From Candidatus Bathyarchaeota archaeon (GTDB lineage: Archaea > Thermoproteota > Bathyarchaeia > Bathyarchaeales > Bathycorpusculaceae), in contig CAVRFW010000012.1 of NCBI GenBank assembly GCA_963720565.1, positions 1-64,000 on the forward strand: a stretch of 64,000 nt of DNA, in the 5' to 3' direction. Within the stretch, counting starts at the first letter, position 1. Each line of letters starts with the position of its first letter. Below the pieces are notes generated by a model that was not told the DNA's origin, searched no databases, and was given only the letters and a program-made list of their open reading frames with translations. A program made the position numbers and the translations under genes. Positions 2,761 through 10,866 of this stretch are shown here, piece by piece.

Positions 2761-2845
2761 AGTTCCATCCTTCCTTAATCAAGCAAAAACTGCGCCAAAC
2801 AATAGTTCTTTTACTGAAGACACTATTATACTGTAAGGTGAATCC

Positions 2846-3463
2846 TTGAAGCTTGTGCGAAAGCACAAAAATCACAAACCATTCAAGCAACTAACACTGG
2901 ACAGTCTCCTTTCTGAAACTGAGAAAAACTTGCCCGAAACAAAAACCAAGCAAGCTCTCGTAAATGTTGACACGGAAACATTACCCTTCAAAAGCAAACA
3001 AATTACAATCACGCAGTTAGCCCCAACCATAAAAAATTATGACGAACTAAATGTAGACACAGATTTCAGACTCGTACCTTCTAAGAAAGCTTTTTCAAAA
3101 ATAAGGTATACACTATGGTTTGATGGGCAAAAAGCATCATCTGATCTCATCGAGATCCCCCAAAGTCTTGTCGCATCCGACGAATTCGAGATAAAGCGAA
3201 TTTTAGATTTAAGAGGAATGACTCCGGGAAATCACACGGTAAAAGTAGAACTATGTGACCTTTTTTCCCCTTCATGCGCTTCAAAAGAAATAGCAATTGA
3301 GTACAAACCTCTGACCAAAGAGGAAAGATATAGAAGAATACCAACAGTCAAGAAGACTGAAGGCGTTGACATAGCTATTGTCTCAAACGACGAAAAAGAA
3401 GTGCTTAGAGAGATTAATGATACACTCAGAAAGGAACAAATCAGCAAAAGAGATAACTGGTAA
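2846..3463 (+). CDS. Hypothetical protein with a beta-rich central domain
   Basis: 205-aa ORF divergent from the DUF72 pair; N-terminal KQLTLDSLL motif. Confidence 0.7.
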   Translation: MKLVRKHKNHKPFKQLTLDSLLSETEKNLPETKTKQALVNVDTETLPFKSKQITITQLAPTIKNYDELNVDTDFRLVPSKKAFSKIRYTLWFDGQKASSDLIEIPQSLVASDEFEIKRILDLRGMTPGNHTVKVELCDLFSPSCASKEIAIEYKPLTKEERYRRIPTVKKTEGVDIAIVSNDEKEVLREINDTLRKEQISKRDNW

Positions 3464-3578
3464 AGTTACCTGACCTCCTAAAAGAACCAGGGATTTTGCT
3501 GAATGGATAAGAAAGTCTGGAACACAACTTTGCCCTGTGTTAAGAGTCCAAATGCCTTTCAGAAATTTGACACGTTGC

Positions 3579-5096
3579 TCAATATGTTTTTGTCCAACAG
3601 TATGTACACAGGTCTTCTCGTTTTAACGTAGTGTTGTTAGGGGCTTCGATTACTGCTCGTATCATTTCTTCCAGAGTTAGGAAACGCAGCGTTGTGAAGC
3701 CTATGCGTTGTCTTATTTCTTCCACCATAAGCTTGTAACTTGGACTCGTCGGGTCAACAAACGCGTTGAGGTCACTGCTGAGTCCGATGTTTCCAAGGCT
3801 TTTGTAGGTTGCAAGGTCGCTGTTCCTGGTTGATACATCAAAAATGCAGGGGTGCAGTTGTGGAGGAGATGCTATTCTTGCATGAATTTCTTTGGGTTTG
3901 AAGGGCAGGATTTTTTCCTTCAGGAGATTTTGCAGTTGCGTTCCTCGTCTGATTGAGTCGTCAACGAGAATTATGCTTTTGTCCTTTATCATCTGGGGAT
4001 TTGGAACCTGTTTGTACTTTGCCACCATTTCTCGGGTCCGTTGTGCAGGGGGAATATAGCTTCTTCCCCAGCCCGGAGTGTATTTGATTAGCGGGCGCCT
4101 AAGAGGAGCAACATACCCAAGAATCTGGTTTGTGGCTGTTTCCAACTCTTCCAAACTAATCTTGCCCTGCTTGAACTCTGCTAGGAGCTGCCGTATTCCT
4201 TCTTTTGCTAATTCAATTTTTCTCTTTACATAACCAACTGAATGGGGCAAACCTGAATCGGCAACGCCCAGCACCAGATCAGCTTTTGCTTCGTCTTCTT
4301 CAGCTAAGAAACCACCGCATCGCTCCCTGACTATTTCGGAGTTTATACCATAGAAATCTGAAGCTGGAAAACCTGAATACACATGAAGAAAAGGGCAAAA
4401 CTTTTTTTTGCCTCGGGTGGGCACTCTCTGTGTCAACCCGTTTTCCCCAATTGAGACTATTTCGCGAAAATCAAGAAACTTGACAACCTCGTACCCTAAA
4501 TTGGGGAAGCCCGTGGTTTCAGAAGCTACAGCCCAACTCTGTTCCTTCGTACCAACCACCAGAGGAAACGTGTCACCGGCAGCATAAATGGCTCTGTCGT
4601 TTTCAGAGAGCAACAGCAGAGAAATCGAACCTTCTATCTTATCATACATTTTCTCTATTCCAGCAACCAGATTCTCGCCAGTTGCTATTAGTTCACCAAC
4701 GAGTTCCGTCTGAGATTGCAGGTTTACCTTTTGCCTTGACTTTTTGAAGGTTGCTCCTTTTTCGATCAGTTCGGAATATAGTTTTTTGGAGTTATTAATG
4801 AAGCCAACTGTGCAGAGGGCGAAATTACCTATTTTTGTTTCGAATTTGATGGGCTGGTCCTCTTTTATGTCACTGATAACTCCTATGCCTATTGTGCCTT
4901 TAAGTTTTGGAAAGTGTTTCCCGAATTTTGATTTGAACTGGCTATTACTGATATTGTGAGATATAGTTTCCATGTAGCCATCAAGTATAGCTATGCCTGC
5001 GACTTCGGTTCCCAGATGAGTGTGGTAATCTGTTCCGAAAAACAAGTCTCTAGCGCAATTGCTTCTTGAGGCAACTCCGAATAGACCGCCCAACAT
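3579..5096 (-). CDS. purF: Amidophosphoribosyltransferase, variant lacking Cys1
   Basis: GGLFG..DLFFGTDYHTHLG N-terminus, ILVDDSIRRGTQL PRPP loop, LCTYCW C-terminus; start placed at ATG 5096. Confidence 0.9.
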   Translation of the reverse strand: MLGGLFGVASRSNCARDLFFGTDYHTHLGTEVAGIAILDGYMETISHNISNSQFKSKFGKHFPKLKGTIGIGVISDIKEDQPIKFETKIGNFALCTVGFINNSKKLYSELIEKGATFKKSRQKVNLQSQTELVGELIATGENLVAGIEKMYDKIEGSISLLLLSENDRAIYAAGDTFPLVVGTKEQSWAVASETTGFPNLGYEVVKFLDFREIVSIGENGLTQRVPTRGKKKFCPFLHVYSGFPASDFYGINSEIVRERCGGFLAEEDEAKADLVLGVADSGLPHSVGYVKRKIELAKEGIRQLLAEFKQGKISLEELETATNQILGYVAPLRRPLIKYTPGWGRSYIPPAQRTREMVAKYKQVPNPQMIKDKSIILVDDSIRRGTQLQNLLKEKILPFKPKEIHARIASPPQLHPCIFDVSTRNSDLATYKSLGNIGLSSDLNAFVDPTSPSYKLMVEEIRQRIGFTTLRFLTLEEMIRAVIEAPNNTTLKREDLCTYCWTKTY

Positions 5097-5574
5097 TAAT
5101 TTCGCATCCAACTTGTTTGGTTGCAGTTTCACCCTAAAAGAGTTGCCGTCTGTTATAGCATTTTTTAAGACTGTTTTCGCAAAGTGCATCTGCAAATAAT
5201 GTTTTGGGATGAGGCTTCTGGTTCGGCGTAAGATTTTTGGGCGATTAGGGCTGGAAAAGAGTCATAGAAAAGCAGTTCGAAGCACCCAAAGAATCAGTTC
5301 TTTGCAGTGTTGCGACACCTCAAATGAGATTTATGGGTTACAAGGGGGACGACATGTGCTTTCCTTCTAACACTCCGTTGGAAGATTGATCAAGACTCTT
5401 TTCCTCTCATCTCTTTCCTGTATTTATTGGGAGAAAACGGCAGTCTTTCTTAGATATATCGATTTTGGGAATATGTCAGAATACAAAACAAGGTATATAT
5501 TAAGTCTTGCGATACGAGTTGTAGTGCTGTATTACACTCCAACAGTAATACAAAACTACACAATGGTGAAAAAA

Positions 5575-5952
5575 ATGAGTCTAACAAACCCAAACACCCA
5601 ATGCATGTTACAACTCTGTGAACTAAAAACAACAGAAGACCTTTTTGAAAAAACAATACTCGAAGCAATCGACGAAGGTTTCTCTTTCTTCGGGGAATCC
5701 TGCAAAGAAGACATCTACACACACCTAGAAAGCTACTATGAACTTGAGAGAAACTACATACCCTACAAAATCGAACACTTCTCTACTGCACTCCACCAGT
5801 GTTTCGGCGTCGGAGCAAAAATAATCGAAATGAACATAATCAAAGCTCTCTGCGAAAAAAACAAGAATTTCACTTTTTCTCCAAAGAAGAGAGACTTGGT
5901 CTTCAATGAATATGCGGAAGGTCTGAAGACCTTCTTAGCGGAGCAAACATAG
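5575..5952 (+). CDS. Small helical archaeal protein (DUF3227/NitrOD5-like)
   Basis: AIDEGFSFFGES..IYTHLE..IPYKIEHFSTALHQCFGVGAKIIE pattern. Confidence 0.6.
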   Translation: MSLTNPNTQCMLQLCELKTTEDLFEKTILEAIDEGFSFFGESCKEDIYTHLESYYELERNYIPYKIEHFSTALHQCFGVGAKIIEMNIIKALCEKNKNFTFSPKKRDLVFNEYAEGLKTFLAEQT

Positions 5953-6019
5953 CAATCTAAACGTCTGCCCACGCTGTTAGATGAATTATCTTTGGGCTTT
6001 TGTCCAAAGAACGAATGCT

Positions 6020-6538
6020 CTATCCGTTTGTTGTGTTGATTCTTATTAAGGAGAAAACCTCGTGCTTATCTCCAAGTGTCTTTCTTCCCTCAAGATAACC
6101 TAATTCTATCAAGAAGCCTATTCCAACGACTTCTCCGCCCAACTTCTCAACCAACGCAATATTTGCCTTCACAGTTCCACCCGTAGCGAGCAAATCGTCG
6201 ATGAGCAAAACCTTCTGTCCGGGTTCAACAGCATCTTTGTGAATCTCAATCGTGTCACATTCATACTCTTTCTTGTACGTTAGGTCTACACACTTGAATG
6301 GCAGCTTGCCCTTCTTTCTAATAGGCACGAAACCTACCCCAAGCTCATAGGCCAAAGCAGCTCCCACTATGAAACCTCTCGCTTCGTTCGAAACTACAAC
6401 ATCAATAGATGTGCCTCGGTAATGATCAGCAAGCAGTCTGACGCATTCTCTAAAGCAGTCCTTATCCCTCAGAAGAGGGGTAATATCCCAAAAAACCACA
6501 CCTTTAAACTCGGGAATACGCCGAACTTTTGACTTCAA
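6020..6538 (-). CDS. apt: Adenine phosphoribosyltransferase
   Basis: FWDITPLL, EARGF, RKKGKLP, LIDDLLATGGT. Confidence 0.95.
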   Translation of the reverse strand: MKSKVRRIPEFKGVVFWDITPLLRDKDCFRECVRLLADHYRGTSIDVVVSNEARGFIVGAALAYELGVGFVPIRKKGKLPFKCVDLTYKKEYECDTIEIHKDAVEPGQKVLLIDDLLATGGTVKANIALVEKLGGEVVGIGFLIELGYLEGRKTLGDKHEVFSLIRINTTNG

Positions 6539-6583
6539 ATCAACTTCCCTACTCTTCCTGTTTTCCGTCTTTAATCCCTCCCT

Positions 6584-7376
6584 TCAAACCATTGCACCCT
6601 TCAAAGCATGCCCGCAATCACAACTCGGTTCTTTTGGCAACCCTGCAACTGTCTCAGCTATTATTCGCTTTACTTTCTCAATGTTTGCCCGCATAATGAC
6701 CATCACTTCATCCACACATACTGGATGATCTTTCCATACATCATAATCCGTAACGGTGGATATCGATGCGTAGCATATTTCGGCTTCGCGTGCAAGAACG
6801 CACTCAGGAACAACAGTCATGCCTACTACGTCTGCCCCCCACGTTCTGAACATTTTTGATTCAGCCTTCGTTGAAAAACGCGGCCCTTCTATGCAAACAT
6901 AAGTTCCTTTGCTATGCGCGTGAATATCTAGATCTCTGGCGACTGCTATCAGTGGTCTTCCGTATTTCTGGACACATCGGTTCTGCAACTGATATGTGGC
7001 AAACCTTTTTCTCCGCAATTGTGTAGAAAGACTGTTCGCGTCTTGTAGTCCTATCAATGAACTGGTCAACGAGAACAATGTCTCCGGGTTTGTAATCTTC
7101 CCTCAATGAACCAACGGTTGAAGGTGCAAGTATCCTTCTAACGCCTAGCTTCTTCAAGGCGAAGATGTTTGCCCTGGCATTGATGTCTGTCGGTCTTATC
7201 GTGTGTCTTTTAGAGTGTCTTGGCAGGAACGCCACAAGTCTGCCACTCAACTCGCCTAGAGTAATTGCGTCAGAGGGCATACCATAAGGCGTGTCTATCG
7301 TGACTTCTTCGACATTCTTGAGGAGTTTTGGATCGCATAGACCCGTTCCGCCGATTATTCCAATTTCTGCTTGCAT
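6584..7376 (-). CDS. mtnP: S-methyl-5'-thioadenosine phosphorylase (frameshift near 6958)
   Basis: [22 protein letters not shown] in one frame; [20 protein letters not shown] in the next. Confidence 0.9.
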
Positions 7377-7439
7377 GAAGTCTTTACTTTGGGTAATCTG
7401 CTTATAAGAATAGCGACTAAAACATTGCCAATTACGTAG

Positions 7440-8513
<1,074 letters not shown>

Positions 8514-8522
8514 TCAACGCTT

Positions 8523-10733
8523 TCATGATTTAGTGAACCTGTCAAACACGGTCAATGTGCTAACGGCGCCACAAGAAGGACATTTATGCAAGAATCCGAA
8601 CCAACTTTTCCTGCAGTTGCTGCAGTATGTAACGGCCCGGTTGTACGTAAAAAATTCAAGCGCTTGATTTTGAACTAGGTGCACAGTCAAGGATAGCAGC
8701 GATTCAGGTTTGTGCTCAGTTTCACCCAAGTCAACTATGCTAAGACTTCCTCCAGTGCTGACACTTTTCAGTTTTCGCGCATCGTCTAAAGCGGCAGACG
8801 CAATTATCGGAAAATCACCGGATTGGAGGCGCATGTGCTTCGCGGTCGAATAAAAGGGTCTGTCTCGAGTTCCTGAAAACCTTATTCTAGCGACTCCATA
8901 CTTCTCAATATCCAATCGAACCAGTCGCTCAGACGCTTCATTGTTAGGAAGGATTGCAGGGTACAACCGTTTTCCATGTTTCCTGCCGAGTTTTTGTTTC
9001 AATACTATGATGGCTTGGATAATTTCCTCTGCAAATTTGCTGCCTTCTTCGGAAGTTGCATCCTTTTCACAAAAAGTCTCCACAGTTTCGCGGAATCCCG
9101 CCAGATTTATCAATCGAGAGCAGTTTTCAAGCCTAAGATACGTATCGTCATTTAGGCTCTGCATTAGAAATGGAAAGAAGGTTTTCGCATGTTGCCTAAG
9201 CACACCATACTTTATTCCGAGGGCGCGAGCTGCCATCTCGTATCTCTCCCGCAGAATCTCGAAGAATTTGTTCTTGTCTTTCTCGCTTTCAATGGCGATC
9301 CGGGGTAAATTAATCGTGACCGCTCCGAGGCAACCGGTTCTCAGAGTATCGATTTCCCAGTCTCCAGTTAGATCTGCCTCAAGCTTGCACCCTGAAGAAG
9401 AGAATACCGGATAACTGTCTCTCTGTAGTGCATTTACAAAGTATGGGGTTCCGGTCACCGTCGCCAAATTGTGAACTTTTAGAAGAACAGCTTTAGCATT
9501 TTCATTCTCTAACGCTTCGCTAGATATTTTGACAACAAGTTTAGGATTCAGCAGTGGTTTTAGAGTACTCTCCTCCAACAATACTTCGGATAAAAGTGAC
9601 GCTATCAAGAGGCTTTCATAAGCAAAATCTCCATATGTTCCGCATGTTTTTCCTTCTGGACCGACCGCTGCCTTATCTGCAATGAATCTCGGAATCGAAA
9701 GCTCTATTCCCAGAGTTGCGTCCGCGTGTTGACTTAGGCTTATTGTGAAGAGACGAAGATACTCCTTTATCCTTGGTGCATCTAATCCTCTGGCGAAAGG
9801 CGCGAGAAACACGTTGAAGTAATCACAGGTTTGGGTGGCATTGAGTTCTTTGCTCCCATGCAAAATGACGTTAAACGTGATTGATAATGCAGATTCAAAG
9901 CTCTTAGGATGTTCTATGGAGAGTTGAAGATTGTTTGCAGCGTTTATGCCGTTTTGGAAGAAGAATCGTAGATCGTGGATTACTTCGTCTGGCTTAAGCA
10001 CCCACGTACCGAGGCATTCTACATGGATGGCGCCTGAGACATGTGCATCGGCGATGTCTCTGGGGAAAATATTCAGGAGGGTATACTCGCCAAAAACTGT
10101 CTCTCCCGCAAATGCTATTTTGTCCATAGAGTCCTCCTCAACACTTTTCGCCTCCATCAAAACCGTTACCTCGTGGACGGGCATGCCAAGTCGCGTAAGC
10201 TTGTGTCTGTAGTCTTCAAGTCCCTTTTCAACCAGTATCCCGTTGACTACCTCTCTAACCAGCGGCGCGGTCAAATACTTGGTTTTAGATTTGAGCAAGC
10301 GTTTTTCAGCCTCTTTGGCTGCCTTCTGAGCTAATTCCGGCGGCATTTTTGCCTCCTTGATAAGCGAATTCGCAATTTTGTTGACATCAAATTCTTCAAG
10401 AGTATAATGTGATGTGCGGATTGTTAATCCGCGGGGTTTATCCGCCTTTTTTTCCACTCTATCCGCGACGTCGAGGACCATCTTGCCCAAATCAGTTAAA
10501 CTGTACTTCTTGGCTTCAGAGTCGGGTTCAATCAAGTCTGCCTTTAGTAGGAATTTTAGGTGATAGGCAAACCTTCCTGCGTCTCTACTTGGATTCATCT
10601 TAAGCGCGTTCATCAATTCGGTATAAGAAAGACCTCCTTTGTCAAAAAGGAGATTTAGGATTTGCAGTCTCAGAGGTGAAGAAACGGCCTTCAGAACTTT
10701 TACTCCGCGAACCCTCTGTGGAAGATTAACCAT
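8523..10733 (-). CDS. Winged-helix + ATP-cone + class III ribonucleotide reductase-like fusion, apparently inactive
   Basis: N-terminal ArsR-like HTH (LRLQIL..LSYTELM..FAYHLKFL), ATP cone (EEFDVNKIANSLIKEA), NrdD core (VTINLPRIA), CxxC..CxxC; ends DRFTKS without RxxGY. Confidence 0.85.
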   Translation of the reverse strand: MVNLPQRVRGVKVLKAVSSPLRLQILNLLFDKGGLSYTELMNALKMNPSRDAGRFAYHLKFLLKADLIEPDSEAKKYSLTDLGKMVLDVADRVEKKADKPRGLTIRTSHYTLEEFDVNKIANSLIKEAKMPPELAQKAAKEAEKRLLKSKTKYLTAPLVREVVNGILVEKGLEDYRHKLTRLGMPVHEVTVLMEAKSVEEDSMDKIAFAGETVFGEYTLLNIFPRDIADAHVSGAIHVECLGTWVLKPDEVIHDLRFFFQNGINAANNLQLSIEHPKSFESALSITFNVILHGSKELNATQTCDYFNVFLAPFARGLDAPRIKEYLRLFTISLSQHADATLGIELSIPRFIADKAAVGPEGKTCGTYGDFAYESLLIASLLSEVLLEESTLKPLLNPKLVVKISSEALENENAKAVLLKVHNLATVTGTPYFVNALQRDSYPVFSSSGCKLEADLTGDWEIDTLRTGCLGAVTINLPRIAIESEKDKNKFFEILRERYEMAARALGIKYGVLRQHAKTFFPFLMQSLNDDTYLRLENCSRLINLAGFRETVETFCEKDATSEEGSKFAEEIIQAIIVLKQKLGRKHGKRLYPAILPNNEASERLVRLDIEKYGVARIRFSGTRDRPFYSTAKHMRLQSGDFPIIASAALDDARKLKSVSTGGSLSIVDLGETEHKPESLLSLTVHLVQNQALEFFTYNRAVTYCSNCRKSWFGFLHKCPSCGAVSTLTVFDRFTKS

Positions 10734-10866
10734 ATCGCTATCCTGTCTCGATTGCGTGAATCTATTATTTTGAAGGCAGAGTTTAAACTTTAGCTATTCC
10801 ATTCTTGCAGCAACAACTCATTTATTAAGACAATATGACGCATTAGTTTATCTGTAATGGAGCTTC

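Follow-up and report, generated by a model that had tools for sequence, protein, structure and literature searches.

An apparently dead anaerobic ribonucleotide reductase fused to an ArsR-type winged helix in Bathyarchaeia: a candidate regulator of DNA-precursor supply

The psi-NrdD gene and its domains

The stretch of DNA analysed here (the window) is 64,000 nucleotides long and comprises positions 1 to 64,000 of contig CAVRFW010000012.1, from the Candidatus Bathyarchaeota archaeon assembly GCA_963720565.1. Its minus strand carries at 8523-10733 an open reading frame (ORF) of 736 amino acids, with an ATG start and no internal stop. Judged from its sequence, the product is a catalytically dead NrdD, the class III (anaerobic) ribonucleotide reductase, fused to a winged helix. 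This protein and its family are called psi-NrdD in the following. From the N- to the C-terminus, the regions are:

10440..10721, minus strand: ArsR/SmtB-type winged helix-turn-helix, residues ~5-98 (Pfam, AlphaFold2, Foldseek)
10200..10424, minus strand: variant ATP-cone, residues ~104-178 (Pfam, fold, Foldseek)
8634..10136, minus strand: NrdD alpha/beta barrel, predicted to be catalytically dead, residues ~200-700 (Pfam, AlphaFold2, Foldseek)
8562..8633, minus strand: zinc ribbon CxxC...CxxC (C704, C707, C718, C721), by alignment to the canonical zinc-site cysteines
8523..8561, minus strand: stub of the glycyl-radical domain, ...STLTVFDRFTKS and stop, with R732 kept, Gly replaced by K735 and Tyr by S736

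In the N-terminal head, Pfam finds DUF7347 at residues 13-88 (30.7 bits, cut-off 27.6) and HTH_5/ArsR at residues 19-69 (27.2 bits, cut-off 22). The ATP-cone (PF03477) follows at residues 105-175 (28.8 bits, cut-off 25.8) and NRDD (PF13597) at residues 210-732 (E 5.4e-64). The NRDD match covers profile positions 17-538 of 562, and the last 24 positions of the profile, those of the glycyl-radical motif, have no counterpart in the protein. The NrdD equivalog TIGR02487 gives 232.7 bits, below its cut-off of 326.35, and the metalloregulator ArsR/SmtB model NF033788 gives 31.3 bits, below its cut-off of 55. The NrdR model TIGR00244 does not match the 736-aa protein. Source databases give many members of the family one of two names, "ArsR family transcriptional regulator" or "anaerobic ribonucleoside-triphosphate reductase". 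An earlier reading of the same DNA, referred to here as the original prediction, had described an intact 736-aa ORF with a winged helix, an ATP-cone, an NrdD barrel and a CxxC..CxxC site, and all of these are present according to the ORF call, Pfam and alignment.

Fate of the catalytic residues

The canonical reference used for alignment with MAFFT consists of seven RxxGY-bearing NrdDs, a small set picked from the matches to the 736-aa protein. Counts out of 62 refer to the members of the family that bear the helix-turn-helix (HTH), and counts out of 121 to close homologues of 68-95% identity.

The canonical Arg, Gly and Tyr columns of the glycyl-radical motif fall on R732, K735 and S736, and the protein ends ...VFDRFTKS*. 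The exchange of the radical Gly for Lys, as stated in the original prediction, is thus confirmed. RxxGY is found in 0/121 close homologues, all of which terminate at one point with FDRFxS[TA]*. Public contigs from four DNA runs that align to the window give thin cover without indels, none of the pieces listed spanning the stop codon; the early C-terminal end is supported by the 121 homologues, which share it. In divergent members RxxGY is mostly absent, and a few retain a Gly near the motif, such as P0148 (RAEGY) and P0179 (RRLGY). A search of the genome (88.8% complete) for a stand-alone glycyl-radical protein (PF01228) gave none.

The equivalent of T4 C79 is E250, within KPDEVIHDL, at a position occupied by Cys in 7/7 canonical sequences and in 0/62 family members, so that the loss of the first active-site Cys, earlier suspected by eye, proves correct. 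The equivalent of T4 C290, the thiyl-radical Cys of the finger loop, is retained as C449. Of the 121 close homologues, 77 matched the search pattern, with 38 C, 19 L, 11 I, 8 V and 1 Y in this column, and 44 did not match; deeper members of the family mostly have a residue other than Cys there. Given this variation among close homologues, the thiyl-radical position appears to be free of constraint. The Asn of the GNL motif had also been noted, by eye, as apparently replaced. T4 N311 does align to a Cys (C468, phmmer) but the exchange is not diagnostic, since Ser occupies this position in the NrdD of T. maritima and in the active NrdD of the genome itself.

Other parts of the reductase have been preserved. 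Three of the four Cys columns of the zinc ribbon were counted, and they are retained in 54-55/62 family members. The motifs that the 736-aa protein has in common with NrdD include N-L-P-R, R..D and the H-D-L-R block. Among the canonical columns that are at least 90% conserved (n=60), 18 are kept in at least 80% of the family and 25 in fewer than 20%.

Predicted fold

An AlphaFold2 model of the full protein, built from a 78-sequence family alignment, has a mean predicted local distance difference test score (pLDDT) of 89.6 and a predicted template-modelling score of 0.80, the barrel being mostly above 90. The top ~35 Foldseek matches of this model in the PDB are all NrdD (E 1e-17 to 1e-27, 13-18% identity), and the structures matched are the class III reductases of S. 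thermophilus, P. copri, T. maritima and T4.

The winged helix is modelled, with pLDDT mostly 82-89, as helices at residues 5-16, 20-32, 37-43, 52-64 and 81-97 and strands at 68-71 and 76-79. This corresponds to the order alpha1-alpha2-alpha3-recognition helix-beta hairpin wing-alpha5 found in ArsR repressors, and the predicted recognition helix is basic and conserved (RDAG[KR]FAYHLK). The ATP-cone is modelled as a beta hairpin (104-106 and 112-114) and four helices (117-128, 132-148, 156-169 and 173-178). A separate model of residues 1-200 (pLDDT 80.5) matches CzrA, HlyU, SmtB, CadC and the NolR-DNA structure at template-modelling (TM) scores of 0.7-0.78 and root-mean-square deviations of 2.4-3.3 A, and its cone part matches the NrdR models 9a6n_B and 7p37_A, with weak E-values throughout (none at or below 0.001). 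Structure prediction, which had been proposed as a check, recovers both the ten-stranded alpha/beta barrel of NrdD, with its finger loop, and the ArsR-type winged helix.

Nucleotide sites of the barrel and the cone

The roles assigned to HxHD, the ATPAE loop, the NxN flap, loop 2 and the cone residues are those of P. copri NrdD, as given in PMC11226230. The P. copri sites were traced through a structure alignment to the genome's own active NrdD, chain numbering being the paper numbering plus 4.

In the barrel, the NxN flap over the active site reads S-V-E in the 736-aa protein and is lost, Asn being present in at most 5/62 members. The HxHD triphosphate motif has become H237-V-E-C; its first His is found in 45/62 members, its second in none of the 62 and its Asp in 10/62. 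The ATPAE loop is I-L-P-N-N, with Pro in 9/62 and Glu in 15/62. In the loop-2 region, Gln residues that do not vary in canonical NrdD are retained in at most 10% of the family, as judged from the conservation of canonical columns.

Solved ATP-cones contact the triphosphate with a Lys-Arg pair in the roof (K7 and R8 in P. copri) and hold nucleotides with an aromatic and basic last helix, according to PMC11226230. In psi-NrdD the roof is I-R-T-S in place of V-x-K-R, T107 and S108 being at the Lys-Arg positions. The family retains this variant, with Thr in 51/62, Ser in 60/62 and the preceding Arg in 60/62 members. The last helix of the cone is Y175-R176-H177-K178...R181, with Tyr in 55/62, Arg in 56/62 and the final Arg in 62/62. 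Methanogen-type active NrdDs with a second, outer cone have the same R-T-S roof in their inner cone. The proposal that the dead enzyme had kept its allosteric nucleotide sites is not supported by these data: the barrel has lost HxHD, ATPAE, NxN and the loop-2 Gln residues and the cone is devoid of the Lys-Arg pair.

Constraint, distribution and descent

The ratio of nonsynonymous to synonymous substitution rates (dN/dS), estimated by Nei-Gojobori from 92 non-independent pairs among 59 orthologues, is 0.07 overall. It is lowest in the winged helix (0.022), with 0.035 in the cone and linker, 0.051 in the zinc tail and 0.082 in the barrel. In a 26-sequence alignment that reaches down to 27% identity, 24 columns are invariant; one is N475, and the other 23 fall within residues 22-234, chiefly in the HTH, the cone and the linker. 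By these measures the gene is under strong purifying selection in all its parts and is not decaying, and the winged helix and the cone are the best conserved of them.

A search of 1.84 billion cluster representatives returned 1775 matches, 324 of them at E<=1e-30, and relatives are encoded in 544 species-representative genomes. Among the 80 best loci, 75 are labelled Bathyarchaeota, Bathyarchaeia or Bathyarchaeales, and the source names of distant members include Nitrososphaerales and Odinarchaeia. A full-length match is found in 254/401 sampled genomes of the phylum; some families carry it in every genome (56/56 in family f15, 25/25 in another) and others in none (0/23 and 0/16). Three of the 80 best loci (L074, L076 and L077, 62-67% identity) come from bins labelled Limnocylindrales, Nanoarchaeia and Acidoferrum, and look like binning errors.

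A FastTree phylogeny was rooted on the genome's own NrdD, with a sampling biased to matches of the 736-aa protein. The HTH-bearing sequences form a clade of 66 tips, five of them N-terminally incomplete, with no active sequence inside (support 0.60, and 0.996 one node deeper). Its nearest active relatives are two-cone, methanogen-type NrdDs, one cluster of which includes the NrdD of Methanococcus vannielii, and a grade of two-cone pseudo-NrdDs lacking the HTH is placed between these enzymes and the HTH clade. RxxGY is absent from all nine sequences of this second kind (P0193, P0202, P0203, P0233, P0235, P0236, P0249, P0251 and P0262). The seven that were scanned with Pfam have two ATP-cones and no HTH, and some of the nine also lack the zinc ribbon.

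Several peculiarities were met among the matches. For instance, P0171, P0178, P0183, P0186, P0208, P0214, P0216 and others are RITGY-bearing NrdDs of 1000-1700 aa matched in 2-4 stretches, and are probably intein-bearing active enzymes. Members of f15 (L083-L112) carry an acidic N-terminal extension with D/E runs ahead of the winged helix. At locus L124, pseudo-NrdD matches extend over 4.3 kb (2804-7128), which suggests two tandem copies of pseudo-NrdD, and the genomes of its family, f4, have two matches each.

Neighbouring genes and reductases

The gene that faces psi-NrdD in the window is:

7584..8513, plus strand, convergent: pyrB, aspartate carbamoyltransferase (ATCase) catalytic chain (TIGR00670, 393.9 bits, cut-off 236.95)

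The two genes do converge as first described, but they are separated by 9 nt and not 10, the TAA of pyrB being at 8511-8513 and the stop codon of psi-NrdD at 8523-8525. A convergent pyrB lies downstream in 76/80 orthologous loci and is the sole conserved neighbour on the 3' side, and nop5 is divergent upstream in 47/80. The original prediction had also placed the gene beside purF, apt and mtnP. This context is not conserved, since the three genes are found in only 1/80, 2/80 and 2/80 orthologous loci, respectively; in the window itself apt, like pyrB, is above its NCBIfam cut-off, whereas purF is weak and mtnP is split. The absence of an adjacent nrdG, on the other hand, holds across the orthologous loci, none of which (0/80) has one within 6 kb.

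The putative purF (3579-5195, minus strand) reaches 120.5 bits against a TIGR01134 cut-off of 350 and covers profile positions 2-293 of 432 only; it is better described as a divergent amidotransferase than as purF. The mtnP (MTAP) region (6584-7445, minus strand) consists of two overlapping frames, in which NF006334 positions 6-148 match 6912-7445 and positions 141-267 match 6584-7078; the split is a frameshift or an assembly error. Further away on the minus strand (1105-2760), a full DUF72 ORF is followed by an unassigned ORF of 162 aa and by another DUF72 ORF that is incomplete (profile 5-119 of 217), which may be a broken second copy.

A separate active reductase, whose presence in the genome was to be looked for, does exist. 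Contig 9 of the assembly carries a complete nrdR-nrdD-nrdG operon in which NrdD has RVVGY and NrdR and NrdG are above their cut-offs (155.5 bits for NrdR against a TIGR00244 cut-off of 124.65). No PF02867 reductase was found in this genome. NrdR is above its cut-off in 20/151 genomes of the class, almost solely in the family to which the window belongs, and as it is so rare, most carriers of psi-NrdD are without NrdR.

In other lineages the gene stands next to a working reductase. Closed genomes from three families have a PF02867 reductase immediately downstream of psi-NrdD on the same strand (4/4), and no other PF02867 reductase was found in them. The same arrangement is seen in 28/30 loci of f15, one of the exceptions being cut by a contig end. 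In a diverse sample of 26 loci from ~24 families, a working reductase is directly downstream in 7/26; four of these are of the class I/II type, and the other three are NrdDs, which stand with glutaredoxin in L121 and with NrdG in L134. In 11/26 of these loci pyrB or pyrI is directly convergent. Three of them (L115, L126 and L134) have the order psi-NrdD, reductase, convergent pyrB. We infer that this order is the older layout and that the lineage of the window lost the reductase in the middle; the 9-nt tail-to-tail junction with pyrB would then exist because the reductase was lost from between the two genes.

Upstream sequences

Upstream of the gene lies a conserved element:

10760..10797, minus strand: conserved promoter block, with TAGCTAAAGTTTAAAC at 10781-10796 (TATA-like) and AATAATAGAT at 10760-10769

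TTTAAAC with conserved flanks is present 49-68 nt before the start in 64/79 orthologue upstream regions. The block TAG[CT]TAA..TTTAAAC occurs once in the 2.09-Mb genome, and a position weight matrix (PWM) made from 63 orthologue sites scores 28.6 bits at the gene's own promoter, the next best score in the genome being 18.0. Among the 26 diverse loci a high score is obtained only in L122, which belongs to family f1, and the block is limited to this family. Close relatives also appear to conserve the promoter of the adjacent nop5. The block was rejected as the operator of a regulon and is counted as a promoter because it is unique in the genome and confined to f1, and because the nop5 promoter is likewise conserved. 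As a site of autoregulation it is no more than a candidate.

In f15 (L083-L112), TGATC is found upstream of the pseudo-NrdD gene and in the gap to the reductase at ~15-16 per kb, compared with 5.6 per kb in the whole loci. The TGATC-containing 8-mer AAATGATC is present in both the gene and the reductase upstream regions of 8/29 f15 loci, where 200 shuffles gave at most 4 for any 8-mer, and it is absent from 58 kb of coding sequence. As these loci are kin, the shared 8-mer is a weak hint. The stricter array TGATC-N4-9-TGATC-N4-9-TGATC was rejected as a test, as it is absent from 3/4 closed genomes and its four matches in G377 are far from the locus of that genome. Upstream of the nrdR-nrdD-nrdG operon (L001, G000 contig 9, 590-650), a palindrome, CTATGCATAG, and a CACTAT...ATAGTG pair are possible NrdR boxes.

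Proposed function and alternatives

On balance, and with moderate confidence, psi-NrdD is interpreted as a DNA-binding regulator of deoxynucleotide and/or pyrimidine supply that is built on a dead NrdD. The ArsR-type winged helix would bind DNA. The highly conserved variant ATP-cone, and not the old sites of the barrel, would probably receive the signal, most likely an adenine (deoxy)nucleotide. The barrel and the zinc ribbon would mainly form a dimeric scaffold coupling the state of the cone to the geometry of the two DNA-binding heads. Its targets would be genes of deoxynucleotide and/or pyrimidine supply, perhaps including its own promoter. In the genome of the window, the ancestral neighbouring reductase was apparently lost from between the gene and pyrB. 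Since ribonucleotide reduction is served there by a separate nrdR-nrdD-nrdG operon, psi-NrdD must act in trans or on other targets.

Several observations speak against this interpretation. Neither a PWM scan of the genome nor the 26 diverse loci revealed an operator that the promoter of the gene has in common with a reductase or pyr promoter. The cone does not have the phosphate-contacting Lys-Arg pair of solved ATP-cones. It shares its R-T-S roof with the inner cone of two-cone active NrdDs, and it could be non-binding, by analogy with the tandem cones described in the Burnim preprint (10.1101/2022.04.23.489257). Among the diverse loci, 8/26 have neither a reductase nor a pyr neighbour, two of them being cut by contig ends. 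The existence of two-cone pseudo-NrdDs without the HTH indicates that the role of the dead barrel may need no DNA binding. Finally, the genome's own reductase operon has its own NrdR, and with this operon at a separate place psi-NrdD is not simply a local stand-in for NrdR. The functional analogy with NrdR contained in the original prediction stands in part: the gene lies upstream of reductases in other lineages, but here a real NrdR precedes nrdD-nrdG and no common operator was found.

A wider claim is possible, if doubtful. In it, the family is an ancestral and widespread DNA-precursor regulator of Thermoproteota and some Asgard archaea that takes the role of NrdR in bacteria, with the dead reductase as a sensor, perhaps of the deoxynucleoside triphosphate or nucleoside triphosphate pool through the remodelled cone or barrel, and with the adjoining reductase and pyrBI under its control.

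It is rather unlikely that psi-NrdD acts at the protein level, its dead barrel and cone binding and modulating either an active reductase or an enzyme of pyrimidine synthesis, for instance ATCase, while the winged helix serves for dimerisation or as a nucleoid tether. The branching of the HTH-less two-cone pseudo-NrdDs beside the HTH clade suggests that the function of the barrel is older than the HTH; the purifying selection on the barrel (0.082) and the failure to find a common operator in the genome or the 26 diverse loci also favour this possibility. However, the HTH is the most constrained part of the protein (0.022), with the full layout of an ArsR repressor and a conserved basic recognition helix, and the adjoining reductases are of two unrelated-looking types (PF02867 and NrdD), which regulation at the DNA level explains more easily.

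A DNA-binding regulator responding to something other than a nucleotide is improbable. The signal could be a metal or redox state sensed through the zinc ribbon, other cysteines or the head, or a metabolite in the remodelled barrel. By its structure the head is a member of the ArsR/SmtB family, which senses metals and redox state, the counted zinc-site cysteines are kept in most members, as seen above, and the canonical nucleotide contacts have gone from both the cone roof and the barrel. Nevertheless, the score against NF033788 is below its cut-off (31.3 against 55), constraint on the cone is almost as strong as on the HTH, the aromatic and basic last helix of the cone is retained, and the genomic link is to nucleotide metabolism and not to metal resistance.

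That the protein is still an enzyme, either a reductase with another radical source or a catalyst of different chemistry in the old barrel, is very improbable. Although the fold and the zinc ribbon are intact and C449 occupies the thiyl-radical position, this position is L, I, V or Y in 39/77 pattern-matched close orthologues, the glycyl-radical domain is cut off, and HxHD, ATPAE, NxN and the second Cys have disappeared. Moreover, no activase is encoded nearby in the 80 loci, and the 88.8% complete genome yielded no stand-alone glycyl-radical protein. A non-functional relic or an assembly artefact, which the thin read support at the stop codon might suggest, is scarcely credible in view of intact ORFs of equal length and ending in 121/121 close homologues, the occurrence in hundreds of species and the dN/dS of 0.07.

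Significance

Read as a DNA-binding protein, psi-NrdD is probably a gene regulator that has not been described before, with ties to the synthesis of DNA precursors and pyrimidines. A fusion of a winged helix to a dead NrdD was not found described in the full-text literature, a search that left subscription journals and supplements outside, and the accessible portions of PMC13450708, PMC3019208, PMC2795772, PMC11226230 and 10.1101/2022.04.23.489257 contain no mention of it. Little is known of how most archaea control ribonucleotide reduction, and few of them have NrdR (20/151 genomes in this class). psi-NrdD is present in most sampled lineages of the whole phylum and is universal in f15 (56/56), a family with many closed genomes. 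If it is a true regulator, the control of archaeal ribonucleotide reduction becomes directly testable in cultured carriers. There is also a consequence for annotation, as the label "anaerobic ribonucleoside-triphosphate reductase" can wrongly credit genomes with an anaerobic reductase.

Comparison with known systems

psi-NrdD shares with the NrdD structures of T4, T. maritima, P. copri and S. thermophilus the barrel fold, the zinc ribbon and an ATP-cone before the barrel. In contrast to them, it is devoid of the glycyl-radical domain, the second Cys and HxHD, ATPAE and NxN, its thiyl Cys appears to be unconstrained, and it remains below the TIGR02487 cut-off. The methanogen-type NrdDs carry an outer ATP-cone where psi-NrdD has the ArsR-type winged helix.

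NrdR (TIGR00244) represses reductase genes specifically in most bacteria and in some archaea, according to the abstract of PMC9110341. The cone part of the psi-NrdD model resembles NrdR structures, and in several lineages the gene is directly upstream of reductases. However, NrdR is a protein of ~150 aa whose own DNA-binding domain is a zinc ribbon, whereas psi-NrdD has a winged helix and ~560 additional residues of dead enzyme. Unlike NrdR, its cone is without the Lys-Arg roof pair; it coexists here with a true NrdR, and no binding boxes were found for it in the genome and the 26 loci.

With ArsR/SmtB repressors (CzrA, SmtB, CadC, HlyU and NolR), psi-NrdD has in common the layout of five helices and a hairpin (TM 0.7-0.78) and an HTH_5 match above cut-off. 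This likeness concerns only ~100 of its 736 residues, and the protein is below the metalloregulator cut-off. Its sensor would be the cone and the dead barrel, not metal sites.

The reuse of enzyme folds as sensors within DNA-binding proteins is familiar from the so-called trigger enzymes and pseudoenzyme sensors. To our knowledge, no enzyme-derived regulator built on a ribonucleotide reductase has been recognised, and the literature search found none; psi-NrdD, if the reading as a regulator is true, would be a clear example of an entire radical enzyme that has become a sensor.

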